From Octopus sinensis (lineage: Eukaryota), in NCBI RefSeq assembly GCF_006345805.1, contig NC_043014.1:1488001-1552000 (forward strand): 64,000 nucleotides of DNA, written 5' to 3'. A program made the translations under genes and the position numbers. The notes beneath the pieces are model-generated. The model worked only from the letters and a program-made list of their open reading frames with translations, had not been told where the DNA came from and did no database searches. Each line of letters starts with the position of its first letter. Within the stretch, counting starts at the first letter, position 1. Below, piece by piece: positions 1,572-54,183 of this stretch.

Positions 1572-1715
1572 TAGTTTATTTAATCCAGGGTCTGTTACCC
1601 TGGACTTTCGACAGCATGCTGCCGTTTCTTCAGACATGTTGATACTCCAGAGTAACAGGCACCACTCTGAGTTTGTGCTGAGTACTTTCTCCGGATCGAT
1701 ACCAAAGAACAGTAA
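1572..1715 (-). mobile_element. Short Penelope-pLTR-like repeat fragment with hammerhead-like motif (1593-1636)
   Basis: Minus strand reads UGU-CUGAAGA-AAC-GGCAGC-AU-GCUGUC-GAAA-GUCCAGG-GUA-ACA, then AATAAA and a (TACA)n tract. Confidence 0.5.
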
Positions 1716-2467
1716 CACACACACACACACACTCGTACACATGTGGATAAGTATGTACGTTTATAAACATATATTGCTTGTGTGTGTGTGTGTGTTTGTG
1801 TGTGTGCATGTTGTCTATGCCAACGAAGTTGGTGCTGAGCAGTGTCTAAAGCTGTTATACAGAGACGCAGGTGAATGGCTAATTCCTCCAAAATTCTAAA
1901 CTCATCCATCACGTGAGCCACCAAAGTTATTTGGCACCAACATTCTGGATGAGTTCTGCTGATCCAAATGCTTTAAGTACCCATCCCACTGCCAGCCACA
2001 CCTCACTTTCCCAACCCCAAATCTTTATTATTATCATTGTTATTATTATCATTATTACAATTATTATTATTACTATTATTATTATTATTATTATTATTAT
2101 TATTATTATTATTATTATCATTATTATTTTGTTTTTTCCTTTATGATGTCTTATATTTCAATTTCCGTCCGTGAATCTTTGCGTGTCTGTATGTGTGTCT
2201 GCTCTCTCTCTTCCCAGCTCCCTGGTGTGTGTGTGTGTGTGTGTTTGTGTGTGTGTGTGTGTGTGTGTGTGTGTGTGTGTGTGTGTGTGTGTGTGTGTGT
2301 GTGTGTGTGTGAGTGTGTTCGTGTATGCACGTGTGTATCAGTGTACGTGTCTATGTGTTTATGTATTTTTAGGTTAGCATATGATTGAACAGCGAACATA
2401 TTTTGAAAATACGAAATGAGATATTGCACACACACGCACAAACACACACATTCTTATAGAAATAATT

Positions 2468-2820
2468 TACAATATTTACTCGTGTATTAGTCGTACTATT
2501 TTATACTTAATTTTATTTGAAAAAAATATTTGGGGTGCGACCTAATACGGTATCATACAAATAGAATAAAAAGCAGAAAAGCATAAATTTCACATATAGT
2601 TCATAATGTTATTGTACTCAACAGCTGTTTCGTTGACATAAAACATCGTTATTTATCATTATTTATCAAAACTATGTAGACACCACAAGAAGAGGCGACC
2701 TTATGATCGCTTCTAAGTGTGCTGTCGACATAGCTTCGATTAGCCTCTGCCCCTTTCGGCCATCTACTGCGCATGCGCTCTCTGTAGTAGTAGCAGAAAT
2801 AAATTTTTTATATAACGTAA
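2468..2820. mobile_element. Degenerate Tc1/mariner-superfamily (Tc2/pogo-like) non-autonomous DNA transposon end
   Basis: TATTTACTCGTGTATTAGTCG...GGGTGCGACCTAATACG resembles the terminal motif of Tc2-like MITEs; the far end is not defined. Confidence 0.4.
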
Positions 2821-3064
2821 CGGATGGTTTATTCTTTATATAATGTAATGTGTAAGTTTGTGTGTATGTGAGTGTGTGTTAATGCATGCTAATATATGTA
2901 TGCTACATAATATGGGTGCTATTCTGTGTGTGCATGAGTACGGTGTATGCGCCTATGTATATGTGTGTGTGTGCGTGCATGTGTTGCGTGTAGGTGTGTG
3001 CATACATGTTTGTGTGTGTGTGTGTGTGTGTGTGTTAATGTAATTAGTGCGAGTTATATAACGT

Positions 3065-3408
3065 ACGTGCTTAGCGGTTAGGGCATTCGGTTCCCGATTG
3101 CAAGGTCGTGAGTTCGAATCCCGGCGGTGCATTTTGTCCTTGAGCAAGACACTTTATTTTCCCGTTGCTCCAGTCCACTCGGCTGGCAAAAATGAGTGGT
3201 ACCTGTATTTCAAAGGATCACATTTCAAAGGGGCCATTCTTGTCCCATTCTATATTACGCTGAATCTCCCCGAGAACTACATCAAGTGTACGCGTGTCTG
3301 TGGAGTACTCAACCGTTTGAACGTTAATCTCACGAGCAGGCTGTTCTGTTGATCGGATTAGATCAACCGGAACATTCGTCGTCGTAACCGACGGAGAGTC
3401 AGACATGT
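3065..3408 (+). mobile_element. tRNA-derived SINE (CORE-like body, family-C tail)
   Basis: A-box-like GCTTAGCGGTTAGG, B box GAGTTCGAATCCC, CORE-like TCCTTGAGCAAGACACTT; tail shared with 16127-16500. Confidence 0.85.
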
Positions 3409-3658
3409 ATGTGTGTGTGTGTATAGAAGTAAAATGACCAATATATCAACACAATGGACCACTTCCTGTTTCTTGGAGCGCCATCTCGTGAGATGAGCAG
3501 CTCCCTGTGAGAGACTAGTGTCCCACTGTAGCGTTGTTATATCTCACTTCATCTTTACATCGCATCGACACAACCACCCAGAGCTTTCTTAGAGGTTTCG
3601 TATCATACCCACACTTACACAGATATACACACATATGCACATAACGCACATACATAAA

Positions 3659-3858
3659 GCGGTGAGCTGGCAGAGTGGTTAGCGCACCGGGCGAAATGCT
3701 TAGCCGTATTTCGTCTGTCGTTACGTTCTGAGTTCAAATTCCGCCGAGGTCAACTTTGCCTTTCATCCTTTTGGGGTCGATAAATAAAGTACCAGTTACG
3801 CATTGGGGTCGATGTAATCGACTTAATCCGTTTGTCTGTCCTTGTTTGTCCCCTCTAT
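3659..3858 (+). mobile_element. SINE family A
   Basis: GAGCTGGCAGA...GAGTTCAAATTCCGCCGAGGTC...GGGGTCGATAAA...AGTACCAGTT, repeated many times in the window. Confidence 0.9.
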
Positions 3859-4037
3859 GGGCCATTCTTGTCACATTCTGTATTACACCGAATCTCCTTG
3901 AGAATTACGTCAAGTGTACGCGTGTCTGTGGAGTACTCAACCGTTTGAACGTTAATCTCACGAGCAGGCTGTTCTGTTGATCGGATTAGATCAACCGGAA
4001 CATTCGTCGTCGTAACCGACGGAGAGTCAGACATGTA
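3859..4037 (+). mobile_element. Duplicate of the SINE tail at 3230-3408
   Basis: Near-identical, including the private GATCGGATTAGATCAAC variant and the AGTCAGACATGTA end. Confidence 0.85.
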
Positions 4038-4169
4038 GGCAGCAAAGAAATATATACGCACAACTCACGTACATATACATGTACACACACATACAAGCAA
4101 ACACATATTCTTTTATTCTTTTAATGGTTTCAGTCGAAATGGTTGTGATGAGGTGTCAAAGCCTCCGCT

Positions 4170-51375: not shown

Positions 51376-51914
51376 CCACACAATCCTTCACACAAAATGA
51401 GCATTATATTCTTCAGGAAGTACAGATCCCTCTTTCGAACGTCTGCGAATTTCATGTCATCTTCACCGCCTTCGTCGTCATATTTGTTGTAATTTACGCG
51501 GTAGTATTTCGGAATCGTCTATCTTTTCCGACTGGATATCCCACTTCCTTTTTCCTGTCACTTTCCTTCCTTCTCCTGCTTCCATCACGTCACCTCTCAT
51601 AGTCACAATACGATAGTCTAGTTGGTTGTGTATAATTGTCTATAGTAAAAATGACAATAATGTATTAACACTAACAGATTGATACTGCAAAAACTAAATA
51701 ATTATTTTACAGCTAGTATTGCTACGGATTTGTATATGTGTTATAAATGTTATACACGCTGGTATTTCATCTAAGAGTGTTATATTCACTTTTATATTAA
51801 TTGCATATATTAATTTAGTTATTACCTGGCTAGCTTTCGCACAGGTTGTTCCGTTTATTGAATTTTACATCAGAACAAGCATTTTAGGCTTAGCTTAAAA
51901 CGTCCTAGGTATTT

Positions 51915-51957
51915 GTCACTGAGGGGACTAAATAATTTCGAAACACTAGTGTCTGAC
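51915..51957 (+). ncRNA. Type I hammerhead-like motif (A9 to G variant)
   Basis: GUCA-CUGAGGG-GACUAAAUAAUUUC-GAAAC-ACUAGU-GUC-UGAC: perfect 4-bp stem I, palindromic stem III, GUC site, weak stem II. Confidence 0.65.
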
Positions 51958-52509
51958 TCTCACCGACATTCTAAGCAAAGTTCTGAAGAATTTGAAGTTA
52001 GAGCGCAGTGAGTCGGAACTAAAACCGATTATTCAGCAATCTAACGATTCTGTCAATTTACCGTTATAACGTTCTGAAGAAGCGGGTTGAAAAAACTAAA
52101 GAATTACATTTTCTTAACTATTGAAAAAATAAAAATTAAGGTGGTGAGATGTCAAAGAATGTAGCCATTTCTGAAAAGATGTTGATAGATTACCGCTGAG
52201 GATGGCAAAAAAGAAAAAGACGCTCGAGAAAATATTGATAATAAGAACTATAAATTTTAGGTAGGTGAGGGTCATTCTCGGAAGACATCTGTTAATCTAT
52301 TTATACGTGCATTCTGATATATAAATAAATAAATAAGTAAATAATAAATAAATAGATAAATAATAATAATAATAACAACAATAATAATAATAATAATAAC
52401 AACAACAACAACAACAACAACAACAATAATAATAATAATAATAATAATAATAATAATAATAATAATAATTATTATTATTATTATGTTATTATTATAACAA
52501 TAACAAATA

Positions 52510-52912
52510 GGCGCAGGAGTGTCTGTGTGGTAAGTAGCTTGTTTATCAACCACATGGTTCCGGGTTCAGTCCCACTGCGTGGCACCTTGGGCAAGTGTCT
52601 TCTACTATTGCCTCGGACCGACCAAAGCCTTGTGAGTGGATTTGGTAGACGGAAACTGAAAGAAGCCTGTCGTATATATGTATATATGTGTATGTGTGTG
52701 TGTTTGTGCGTCTGTGTTTGTCCCCCTAGCATTGCTTGACAACCGATGCTGGTGTATTTATGTCCCCGCCTTTAGCGGTTCGGCAAAAGAGACCGATAGA
52801 ATAAGTACTGGGCTTACAAAGAATAAGTCCCGGGGTCGAGTTGCTCGATTAAAGGCGGTGCTCCAGGATGGCCGCAGTCAAATGACTGAAACAAGTAAAA
52901 GAGTAAAGAGTA
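52510..52912 (+). mobile_element. SINE family B, full length
   Basis: Near-identical to 48935-49338. Confidence 0.93.
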
Positions 52913-52919
52913 ATTCTTG

Positions 52920-53090
52920 TAATTTTGGCTCAATATCAGCAATTTTCGTAAGAGGGGATTGTCGTTTACATCAGCCACAGTACTTGACTGTTCCTTTATT
53001 TTATCGATTCCGAAGGGATAATAGGCAATGTCGATCTTAGCGGATTTGAACCCAGAATGTAAAGAGACGGAAGAAATGCCGCTAAGCATT
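52920..53090 (-). mobile_element. Degenerate SINE family A
   Basis: GGATTTGAACCCAGAATGTAAAG...GAAATGCCGCTAAGCATT. Confidence 0.7.
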
Positions 53091-53506
53091 GTTTCCGAAA
53101 TTAGACCGAAATTAGTTTGGTTTTAACAAGATTTCGTGATGTTCATTCTTTTCGTGAGGGCAATGAGCGCCGTAAGTGAAGTGCAATCGGGATCTTAAAC
53201 CGCATTGCAATCTCTTGTCCTGTAAAAGATATGAACTACTGAATCAATGAGTTGCCTTTATTAGGGCCCATGTGACTACACAACTGAGAAATATATTTGG
53301 GGGAGGTACAGCACACATATCATAAAATAACATATATACATATATACATATATATAGATACTTATATACAAAGATGCATGCATGAATGCACACATGTACA
53401 TATACATGTATGCATACATAGATGTTGGATCAATCATCGGTTACATACGCATACACACAGATATAGATAGCTGAATATATAAGTTTATGTGTGTTAGTAT
53501 ATATAT

Positions 53507-53705
53507 CGCGTGTGTACCGTTGGCGATTTTTCCTCCGTCTTCCCTTCCTTGGATGTTTCCTTTTCCTATGTTTCTGACGAAGAGCCCCGAGCGAAACGTT
53601 AAATCCTCCTTCTTTCTTTCCTTTCCTGAGCGTCCAATAACACTAGACTTGTTTCACGTCCTCACGTTGTTGTGTTTTCTCTTGTGTTTTCATGTTTGGA
53701 TTAAC
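53507..53705 (+). mobile_element. Family D hammerhead-bearing repeat, copy 3 (HHR 53570-53604)
   Basis: Canonical CUGACGA core but stem II disrupted (GAGC-CCC-GAGC); flanked by TA tracts. Confidence 0.8.
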
Positions 53706-54183
53706 TTTATATATATATATATTATAGATACATATATATATATATATATACAATATATATAGATATATATATATATATATATATATATATATATATATAT
53801 ATGTGTGTGGTGTGTGTGTGTATGTATGTATGTATGTATGTATGTATGTATGTATATATGTATGTATATATATATAAATATATATAATATATAATATATA
53901 TATATATATATATATGTGTATATATATATAAATACATACATGCATAACAGATAGATATGTGGATGTATACGCATACATATATAAATCAAAATAAGCAACA
54001 GGATATCAAGTAGTGATGCAGTACGATCGTTTCAAGTGGCTCCATTTAACTGAACATTGGGGTCGATGTAATCGACTAGTCCCCTCTCTCCAAATTTCAA
54101 GCCTTGTGCCTTTAGTAGAATTATTATTATTATTATTATTATTATTATTATTATTATTATTATTATTATTATTATTATTATTA

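Follow-up and report, generated by a model that had tools for sequence, protein, structure and literature searches.

Hammerhead ribozyme (HHR)-like motifs recur along a 64-kb stretch of the Octopus sinensis genome (64,000 nucleotides; hereafter, the window), and they raise the question of what kind of element carries them. An initial annotation, made from the sequence alone, listed 13 such sites and proposed that they mark a guild of short, non-autonomous elements that lack open reading frames (ORFs), live in (TA)n microsatellites and could cleave any transcript read through them. Our analysis indicates that most of the short elements are very probably the 3' ends (the pseudo-LTR, or pLTR, region) of longer Penelope-like elements (PLEs) of Neptune and Hydra type, and that the site at 51915 is a retrozyme-like relic. 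The copies concerned are listed in Table 1.

Table 1. Repeat copies in the window, with the listed site that each contains and the state of its motif
Positions	Strand	Family	Site	Element	Motif
1574..1700	-	C	1593		CUGAAGA 1633-1627, GAAA 1609-1606, imperfect hairpin, no helix I closing junction; not counted as HHR
7118..7374	-	D	7332	5'-truncated 3' end with tail, Neptune-type PLE, ends in (TA)n	core AUGAAUA 7366-7360 (A3:U8 swap), GAAA 7349; helix III palindrome ACCAUGGU, helix I 6-7 bp, helix II weak
16519..16716	+	A, young subfamily	16592	~200-bp 3' end of Neptune-type PLE, ends in (TA)n	core CCGACGA 16596-16602 (U4C); helix I 4 bp, helix II 4 bp, helix III ACGU
16765..17074	.	I	16978	foldback, 3' end of Hydra-type PLE: inverted tailed arm ~16765-16947 (minus), forward arm 16948-17074	no complete HHR in either arm; arm at site without family core
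20472..21231	+	B	21005	760-bp 5'-truncated pLTR of Hydra-type PLE; tail, then (ATT)n(TA)n	complete canonical HHR; core 21009-21015, GAAA 21032, predicted cleavage after 21043
23953..24369	-	E	24048	minus-strand 3' end plus inverted family tail (~24255-24369)	core CUGAUGA 24161-24155, 89-nt hairpin spacer, GAAA 24064; proximal helix I 2-3 bp
24409..24616	+	A, young subfamily	24482	TA on both sides	core CCGACGA 24487-24493 (U4C)
42159..42359	.	F	42176 (minus), 42230	foldback pair, 3' end of Neptune-type PLE	minus arm: core UUGAAGA 42208-42202 (U3.G8), helix I 2 bp; plus arm (42230): broken core, G5 lost
49354..49490	.	F		second foldback, truncated downstream of HHR	no ribozyme motif
49803..49912	+	A, older relative	49804	5'-truncated	truncated inside core
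51694..51985	+	G	51915	decayed copy of old ~290-320-bp unit	core 51919-51925, A9G; helix II decayed
53509..53707	+	A, older subfamily	53570	ends in (TA)n	core CUGACGA 53574-53580 intact, helix II broken
53984..54058	-	H	54017	3' half of HHR only	GAAA 54033, helix III ACGAUCGU; core missing

Short elements and longer Penelope-like copies

Nine of the 13 positions lie in five families (A, B, D, F and I) that are tied to PLE RT/GIY-YIG coding sequence. Longer copies of these families continue upstream into such sequence, which is Neptune-type for A, D and F and Hydra-type for B and I; the clades were assigned by motif rather than from a tree that includes references. Pfam RVT_1 and/or GIY-YIG models matched five of eight linked or neighboring ORF pieces, and none of the loci examined for A, B, F or I showed an uninterrupted ORF. 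The initial annotation saw no recognizable RT/GIY-YIG ORF in the repeats, and the window itself holds no PLE ORF: only one weak 39-amino-acid tblastn match (E 0.002) was obtained, and Pfam searches of 76 of the 88 unmasked window frames detected nothing other than an RTE-like RT and a DDE remnant.

The window copy of family B is 95-96% identical to both ORF-flanking pLTRs in three loci (L052, L053 and L054) that have a pLTR-ORF-pLTR arrangement, with HHR-to-HHR units of 6276, 5626 and 6271 bp and an ORF of ~2.5 kb. A Pfam scan of this Hydra-type ORF gave no match; by inspection, it has a CxCX5C linker, DKT, a KWK at the RWK-equivalent position, and CxxC and CxH near its C-terminus, with no CCHH. 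For family I, a Hydra-type C-terminus lies upstream in L366, L367 and L368, where only the EN end is seen.

The parents of A, D and F have a CX4CxxC linker and a CCHH, C-terminal GIY-YIG. The family D copy at 7332 is 96% identical to sequence in L237 that lies ~175 nt downstream of the stop of an RT/GIY-YIG ORF, and it also matches L238 (96%) and L236 (89-94%), the latter having inverted and direct family D ends around its ORF. ORF sequence is present at 5 of 19 family D loci. Of 25 family F loci, 10 (including two near-duplicates) have RT/EN remnants on the same strand, ~1.3 kb upstream; the second foldback of this family in the window was absent from the initial list. A family A locus (L229) has a 1.3-kb CA-rich UTR with RT/Zn-linker/GIY-YIG remnants upstream of it, and its ORF-end/UTR junction is common to L230 and L205. 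The family A copy with ORF remnants has only 82% identity to the young window copies.

To judge from their sequences, 24048 (family E) and 54017 (family H) show PLE signatures without a firm ORF link. No linked PLE ORF was found for family E in 20 loci and 4 extended loci, and family H may be linked to a Hydra-type EN remnant, detected at one locus across an 800-bp uncorroborated gap.

Most of the elements do abut (TA)n, as had been noted. TA lies 3' of the end in 56 of 61 copies of A, 23 of 28 of B, 14 of 14 of D and 26 of 37 of F (34 of 37 when the tail is included), versus a background of 6.8%; the count for G is 0 of 5. Junctional TA occurs in 5 of 19 copies of E, 14 of 27 of H and 7 of 21 of I, in which many other copies run into the tail. 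Families B, D, E, F, H and I share widely varying 5' ends, inverted pairs or foldbacks, and two alternative 3' ends with TA at the junction. Their optional 3' tails measure ~65 nt (B), ~50 (D), ~30 (F), at least 60 (H), ~60 (I) and ~150 (E); no tail was seen for family A.

These PLE ends were likely left behind by copying that stopped early. Extrapolating from published PLE biochemistry, the PLE's own GIY-YIG endonuclease would nick TA-rich DNA, and its RT would start at one of two internal sites, yielding copies with or without the 3' tail. Synthesis would then usually abort or fold back, to leave solo or inverted ends of 70-800 bp in which the ribozyme is presumably a passenger. In a tandem parent RNA, the HHR would work by dimerizing at its palindromic helix III or by receiving assistance from protein; copies that are solo, decayed or in foldbacks are predicted to be silent.

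A separate origin is conceivable for the young, ~200-bp subfamily of A, which could be a SINE-like non-autonomous element whose short-unit transcript is trans-mobilized by a Neptune-type PLE and tolerates a weakened (U4C) ribozyme. The 5' ends of family A cluster within ~20 nt at a small hairpin, beyond which none of eight sampled copies and none of three scored window copies reach more than 9 nt; plain random truncation does not predict so sharp an end, but an RT stop at the hairpin accounts for the hot spot equally well. Also in favor of a SINE-like origin are an abundance of ~27,000 family A copies genome-wide (extrapolated from 8 in 800 kb) and the precedent of non-autonomous PLE derivatives (PMC8557442; bioRxiv 10.64898/2026.07.22.740005). 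In a tree of family A copies, a starred set of 44 rows holds 41 short and 3 long copies; the rows of the tree are biased toward best matches to the window copy and, through the pattern used, toward long copies. Short and long copies group on this tree, with 12 label changes compared with 17 after shuffling; however, long copies L206, L218 and L221 nest in the young clade, and short copies are spread throughout. Moreover, the sole direct repeat inspected (L056) is part of a 1-kb segmental duplication. We consider a SINE-like origin rather unlikely, and regard family A, like B, D, F and I, as PLE ends.

Core integrity and the long helix II

Twelve of the 13 listed sites fall within families of type I HHR layout; the exception is 1593. 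Of all the sites, 21005 alone has an HHR that is both complete and canonical. A further four (16592, 24482, 7332 and 42176 minus) are complete with a core that varies at the family level, which leaves eight that are broken, partial or doubtful. For 24048, the true core lies well away from the position listed, 89 nt from the GAAA, and what was taken for the core at 16978 is part of helix II. By contrast with these corrections, sequence inspection bore out the palindromic helix III centers, and the at least seven unrelated repeats that had been claimed are matched by eight sequence-unrelated families (A, B, D, E, F, G, H and I).

At the family level, the three-helix core (CUGANGA/GAAA/UH) is canonical in copies of B, G, H, I and old A and variant in young A, D and F, and helix I is weak in E. 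The family D core, AUGAAUA, is found in 19 of 19 copies matched by the pattern. In family I, the HHR combines a helix I of 7 bp with CUGAAGA, a spacer of 77 nt and the helix III ACAAUUGU; in family H, helix I measures 6 bp and the spacer 57 nt. Natural core variants (U4C, A3:U8 and U3.G8) are diverse in recently amplified families, which suggests that a canonical ribozyme is dispensable for PLE spread and bears on what PLE hammerheads do.

The proposed cleavage of read-through transcripts fares poorly, given the eight defective or doubtful sites and the foldback pairs, which bury the motif in a duplex (42159..42359 is predicted to fold as one long duplex of about -76 kcal/mol). Most copies, with damaged or variant cores, likely do not cut RNA. 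In published work, no cleavage was detectable for a minimal PLE HHR on its own (PMC4209133), and cleavage by a PLE HHR from a lizard required the PLE protein (PMC11167929). These elements would assume greater importance only if intact copies cut host transcripts.

In many of the families, helix II spans 50-100 nt; hairpin closure occurs in 9 of 10 long spacers, compared with 20 of 300 controls. A bolder interpretation combines this feature with the SINE-like, U4C subfamily of A, and supposes an abundant, little-described type of PLE HHR that is catalytically active, either as a monomer or when switched by PLE protein binding the long arm. Such HHRs would have a canonical core, a hairpin or branched helix II of 50-100 nt and a palindromic helix III of 8-12 nt, and would extend to at least ten unrelated families in thousands to tens of thousands of copies. 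We consider this combination doubtful. If it were true, host pre-mRNA could be cut by intact copies that lie in introns. The long-helix-II families would provide a ready panel for asking whether PLE HHRs cleave unaided.

Family G and the abundance of motifs

The guild originally envisaged would consist of independent retrozyme-like elements whose HHRs process circular RNA and cut host transcripts. Family G comes closest. Its copies carry a type I HHR and have a period of 292-322 bp with ~100 bp of terminal redundancy (L101, L104 and L112), their order is circularly permuted between loci, two divergent copies lie in L115, and no linked PLE ORF was found in the flanks examined. From this organization, 51915 looks like a relic of an old, ORF-less, tandem- or circular-template retrozyme-like family, and it is the only stand-alone candidate. 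A 535-bp HHR tandem array in L124 (four direct and two inverted units) and the tens of thousands of intact-looking HHRs extrapolated genome-wide also speak for a guild. However, family G copies are 65-80% diverged and are not TA-linked, the L124 array is ~1 kb from a Neptune-like RT remnant, element ends do not coincide with the cleavage site, and both the nine PLE-tied positions and the eight defective or doubtful sites weigh against it. We judge such a guild very improbable.

What survives of the initial proposal is a PLE derivation of type I HHRs with palindromic helix III, in many families and beside (TA)n; the independence of ORF-less elements does not. Longer Penelope copies that share termini, for which a search had been advised, were found for five families. 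The initial annotation had conceded that novelty would fall if all the motifs mapped to annotated Penelope pLTRs, and it is reduced because these five families are the ends of ORF-bearing PLEs.

The motifs are more numerous than expected from composition. A type I scanner that requires a core with a 3:8 pair, helices I and II and a palindromic helix III found three sites in the window (16596+, 21009+ and 24487+), whereas 30 block-wise dinucleotide shuffles averaged 0.07-0.1. Strict cores numbered 8 in a systematic genome sample of 800 kb, versus 0, 0, 0 and 0 in shuffles, and 24 when a long helix II was allowed, versus 1, 0, 1, 0, 0 and 3; rough extrapolation from this 0.8 Mb gives ~60,000-80,000 strict-core motifs genome-wide. 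Rfam produced no match in the window at gathering score and no hammerhead match at that score in 13 chosen loci. Among the best 150 of 477 Rfam E-value matches in the window, none was a hammerhead; these were microsatellites matching unrelated models, almost all of them miRNA.

An explanation by chance, in which DNA rich in AT and repeats throws up such motifs at random, is almost certainly wrong, and is refuted for every site except 1593: the silence of the Rfam models, the spurious matches that relaxed scanner settings give (3/6) and the failure of 1593 to fold as a three-way junction are outweighed by counts far above shuffles, by a layout and near-3'-end position that unrelated families share, and by the hairpin closure of long spacers. 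The family of 1593 (C) has two matches in the genome, itself included, and no linked PLE ORF was found at either.

For annotation, many short, "unclassified," TA-flanked repeats of the Octopus sinensis genome are PLE ends, and HHR motifs serve as a quick mark by which to recognize them.

Comparison with known elements

Family G resembles the non-LTR retrozymes (Cervera and de la Pena 2020, PMC7229834; Li et al. 2026, bioRxiv 10.64898/2026.07.22.740005) in its 150-450-bp class unit and canonical type I HHR, and in having copies of more than unit length and no linked PLE ORF in the flanks examined. It differs from them in being old and in occurring mostly as 1.3-mers rather than long arrays. The other seven families do not fit non-LTR retrozymes; this identity was rejected for A, B, D, F and I, whose copies extend into PLE UTR and ORF.

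Earlier publications already describe TA targeting, a Hydra PLE in octopus and single, dispersed HHRs that derive from truncated PLEs. Truncation, inversion, tails and (TA)n preference are described for PLEs by Craig et al. 2021 (PMC8557442), and PMC11167929 reports RT initiation at internal sites, cleavage of AT-rich DNA and insertion in vitro that can dispense with the HHR. The parents of A, D and F agree with the Neptune clade, as defined in PMC8557442, in CCHH GIY-YIG, linker, TA junctions, truncation, inversion and tail. The CX2-5CxxC linker and CCHH GIY-YIG are shared with Nematis, so "Neptune-type" includes that possibility. Differences lie in the family-level HHR cores: young A has U4C, D has A3:U8, and F has U3.G8 with a 2-bp helix I.

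Compared with the Hydra clade in PMC8557442, family B is alike in linker, DKT, RWK-like motif, lack of CCHH cysteines, C-terminal CxxC and CxH, 3'-region HHR and (TA)n insertion, and family I has a C-terminus of like type. However, the family B unit spans 5.6-6.3 kb and includes a long 3' UTR, versus generally <3 kb for the Hydra clade (a descriptive, not a strict, figure), and the helix II spacer of family I, at 77 nt, exceeds those of the Hydra rows in File S2 (at most ~25 nt). Three B/I HHR motifs are absent from the supplement text. The HHR listed there for Hydra-1_Obim of Octopus bimaculoides differs from those of B and I; by these motifs, B and I are not that published family.

The available text of Cervera and de la Pena 2014 (PMC4209133) likewise reports dispersed single HHRs, "probably related to truncated PLEs," with opposite-strand pairs, many families per genome and palindromic helix III, as well as an extra base after A9 and 3:8 covariation (U3-A8 there); the A3:U8 of family D does not appear in that text. 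Helix III palindromes here reach 8-12 nt, and helix II is often 50-100 nt, compared with 7-8 bp in Schistosoma there. This long helix II is the one fresh detail here, and Rfam misses such HHRs at gathering scores.

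Hammerhead motifs in the window and in the genome

Motifs of the hammerhead ribozyme (HHR) are real and common across this 2.72-Gb genome (13,516 contigs), because their counts in a genome sample exceed those in shuffled sequence. The sample consisted of 80 evenly spaced 10-kb stretches from large contigs, and motifs were sought with a custom-written scanner for type I HHRs. The scanner identified window sites at 16596, 21009 and 24487, all on the plus strand, compared with a mean of 0.07-0.1 per dinucleotide shuffle. When a strict CUGANGA core was required, 21009 was the sole window site, and the sample yielded eight sites versus none in four shuffles. 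Opening the spacer, that is, the helix II stretch between core and GAAA, to 8-130 nt gave a sample count of 24 versus 0-3 in six shuffles, although six of the 24 belong to one array. A looser, earlier scanner reported six window sites, three of which look spurious.

The initial annotation proposed a dense guild of short, ORF-less HHR elements at 13 positions, most of them next to (TA)n. This was borne out in part: the motifs exceed shuffled background, but only the motif at 21005 is a complete, canonical HHR. Rfam hammerhead models, suggested as a check, produced no match at gathering score in the window or in 13 loci carrying HHR motifs; in E-value mode, the best 150 of 477 matches were swamped by microsatellite matches to miRNA models. 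The window is 37.6% GC, with about one quarter masked as short tandem repeats, and contains 15 (TA)6+ tracts per 10 kb, near the genome-sample mean of 13. Its HHR content is roughly average for the genome, family A excepted.

Origin of the short HHR-bearing families

We consider it highly probable that the window elements add new families to a known class, namely, 5'-truncated ends of Neptune- and Hydra-type Penelope-like elements (PLEs), plus one retrozyme-like relic. The match of short pieces to the ends of ORF-bearing elements was seen directly, as were truncation, inversion, tails and TA junctions. The interpretation originally suggested is supported in part: a PLE- or retrozyme-related origin is retained, but not the guild of ORF-less elements, since for most families the pieces are likely ends of ORF-bearing PLEs. 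Parental ORFs were sought in the genome by using natural ORF pieces as probes.

Family B (760 bp at 20472-21231) is 95-96% identical to both pseudo-LTRs (pLTRs) of units at three loci (L052, L053, L054) that span 5.6-6.3 kb from HHR to HHR. Between the pLTRs lies an RT-GIY-YIG ORF of ~2.5 kb, with stops or frameshifts in every copy read. The ORF has a CxCX5C linker, DKT and an RWK-like motif and lacks CCHH, which are Hydra-clade marks according to Craig et al. (PMC8557442). Among 19 further loci from the first search, four have the ORF at most 1.5 kb downstream of the pLTR, and the upstream extension in the others is highly variable in length. The core is CUGAAGA in 21/21 pattern matches. A second Hydra-type PLE family was observed at L055, L236 and L371.

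Family D (7332, minus strand) is 96% identical to sequence at two loci (L237, L238) that begins ~175 nt past the stop of a Neptune-type ORF, which encodes RT and GIY-YIG and contains both a CX4CxxC linker and CCHH cysteines. Pfam confirms RVT_1 and GIY-YIG in this ORF, and at L236 an inverted family D copy precedes the ORF and a direct copy follows it. The core reads AUGAAUA in all 19 matched copies, with A3:U8 in place of the C3:G8 pair; this register is set because a helix I of 6-7 bp fixes it, and helix II is weak. A C3G/G8C swap partially rescues HHR activity (PMC11167929).

Family A comprises the copies at 16592, 24482 and 53570, with 49804 as an older relative. It is ~200 bp long, with a fixed 3' end next to TA. 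Eight copies in 800 kb extrapolate, with wide error, to ~27,000 genome-wide; the window is enriched (four copies versus 0.64 expected, P 0.004). About half of 30 fetched loci run on into a CA-rich UTR of more than 1 kb, and a pattern lying immediately before the usual 5' end matches the genome exactly 175 times. At L229 the UTR comes after RT, CX4CxxC and GIY-YIG remnants, and the ORF-end junction is common to L229, L230 and L205. The core of the young subfamily is CCGACGA (U4C), a change that reduces HHR activity in vitro (PMC3088659).

None of eight sampled family A copies passes a small hairpin by more than 8 nt, and the 5' end is therefore a strong hot spot. Such clustering could indicate that the young ~200-bp form is a SINE-like short lineage, which we regard as rather unlikely. 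On a tree built from 71 copies (77 matches minus six short fragments), the short-versus-long label changes 12 times, with three long copies placed inside the young clade. The simpler explanation is that RT stops at the hairpin. A direct repeat at L056, considered as a retrozyme dimer, is really a 1-kb segmental duplication. Neptune ORFs in L222/L235, L356 and L359 and Hydra EN pieces in L363 were rejected as the source of families A, H or E, being on the opposite strand or having no common bridge. Other PLE ORFs met by chance include L370:2428-4794 (-) and L359:2713-4421 (+); one chance-met ORF stays open over a long stretch spanning RT and GIY-YIG and resembles the family A parent (55-61%, tblastn).

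At 42176/42230, two 3' ends of family F, both 5'-truncated, form a foldback, an arrangement frequent in this family, and the arms would form a single duplex if present in one transcript. In a UTR search walking upstream, 25/25 loci carry the F end, and 10 of these have same-strand Neptune-type RT/EN remnants ~1.3 kb upstream. The core is UUGAAGA in 9/17 pattern matches; helix II has a C.C pair at its base, and helix I is 2 bp long. An RT remnant at 41431-41808 (minus strand; Pfam RVT_1, E 1.9e-6) was rejected as the family F ORF, as it has no PLE match and we take it to be RTE-like; related pieces lie at 40609-41111 and 29118-29567 (95% identity between the latter and 40609-41055). At L087/L089 (G000:C25:11.067 Mb), a 300-aa single-exon stretch resembling a sodium-phosphate cotransporter C-terminus stops ~600 bp away from a foldback of family F, and because of this proximity the foldback could lie within or close to a 3' UTR.

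In families I, H and E (16978, 54017 and 24048), the initial annotation recognized the GAAA-palindrome half; the family CUGANGA core is 57-89 nt upstream. CTGCGAG at 16978 was rejected as the family I core, and 24048 was rejected as a short HHR. Family E keeps CUGAUGA at 24161 (minus strand). In family I, helix I is 7 bp long, and the end of a Hydra-type ORF lies upstream at three loci; in the window, the core region of this family is in inverted orientation and neither arm is complete. In family H, helix I is 6 bp long and the core is missing from the window copy; at one locus, an EN remnant of Hydra type lies 1.8 kb upstream, and the bridge to it is common to a second copy for 1.06 kb only. 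Family E has a proximal helix I of 2-3 bp, and no linked ORF was found in the loci examined. Inverted pairs and optional tails occur in all three. Family C (1593) has one other genomic match and no closed junction.

Family G (51915) appears retrozyme-like because several copies contain a ~100-bp direct repeat recurring every 292-322 bp, and what stands upstream in one copy is downstream in another. This is the more-than-unit-length form expected of a non-LTR retrozyme. Copies are 65-80% alike and show the canonical layout of an HHR, which is broken in the window copy.

Other repeats in the window

A generic repeat finder reported simple repeats alone; masked self-BLAST was used in its place.

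Additional repeats and remnants in the window
Feature	Positions	Strand	Remarks
DDE transposase remnant, mariner-like	7756-8082	+	Pfam Transposase_1, E 4e-4, below cut-off
Very common ~170-230-bp repeat ending in (ATT)n	3655-3831, 13962-14160, 17145-17289, 17517-17745, 28166-28394, 40043-40497, 47390-48420, 59051-59244, among others		Probably a SINE; a fragment at 54058-54120 adjoins the truncated family H copy
~370-bp repeat, tRNA-like head	16126-16501 and 51008-51371 (92% identical); partial 3222-3409, 3859-4037		Probably a SINE; first copy immediately before family A at 16519
Paired decayed coding-like repeats	22560-23400 with 10956-11258; 54200-54400 with 4803-4902		Probably LINE fragments; no Pfam match in frames tested
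Second family F foldback	49354-49490		Without HHR
Other foldback/inverted-repeat stretches	44620-44799, 44863-44923, 22271-22343, 58949-59004, 24828-25087		No HHR motif by the scanners used; may be MITEs, or PLE ends whose truncation falls below the HHR

TA junctions and HHRs with a long helix II

TA beginning at most 6 nt from the 3' end, found at 6.8% of random positions, occurs in 56/61 copies of A, 23/28 of B, 14/14 of D and 26/37 of F. Counts are lower in H (14/27), I (7/21) and E (5/19), largely because many copies continue into a tail. Family G is not linked to TA (0/5 copies). Published work suggests that EN would nick AT-rich DNA and that internal RT starts would produce the tail. The HHR is reported to be unnecessary for PLE insertion, with cleavage dependent on protein (PMC11167929), and the same would presumably apply here. 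For minimal PLE HHRs, monomer cleavage was undetectable and dimer cleavage low (Cervera and de la Pena 2014, PMC4209133).

Genome-sample HHRs with spacers of at least 30 nt have end-paired folds in 9/10 distinct spacers versus 20/300 random stretches of the same length. Seven loci with unrelated sequences have 51-100-nt spacers and helix III palindromes of 8-12 nt, and a long helix II was additionally found in families H, I and E and by chance at other loci. Consensus folds of this long arm within single families gave partial predicted structures, and copies decay neutrally; the evidence for long arms is across families because within-family folding is uninformative. Unrelated HHR families with 33-100-nt spacers and a long palindromic helix III were observed at L136, L146, L182, L188, L191, L198, L201, L212, L232, L240, L304 and L325. 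At L124:3609-5214(+), plus two inverted units (G000:C1:135.00 Mb), a 535-bp tandem array has four direct and two inverted units, each containing an intact-looking long-helix-II HHR with a 51-nt spacer; the minus strand carries a Neptune-like RT remnant at 1633-1967. This array is a natural multimer suited to cleavage tests. The leads for follow-up are the HHRs with long arms and family A with its sharp 5' end.

Searches of a literature collection with few subscription journals listed no paper describing long-helix-II or cephalopod HHRs. A report of 31 recently active Penelope-like families does not use the words ribozyme or hammerhead in its main text (PMC13282606). In File S2 of Craig et al. 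2021 (PMC8557442), mismatches at the helix II base are common too, and two spike-moss elements, marked as deviating, have a helix II of ~50 nt. Helix II of the Hydra elements in that file spans ~25 nt or less.
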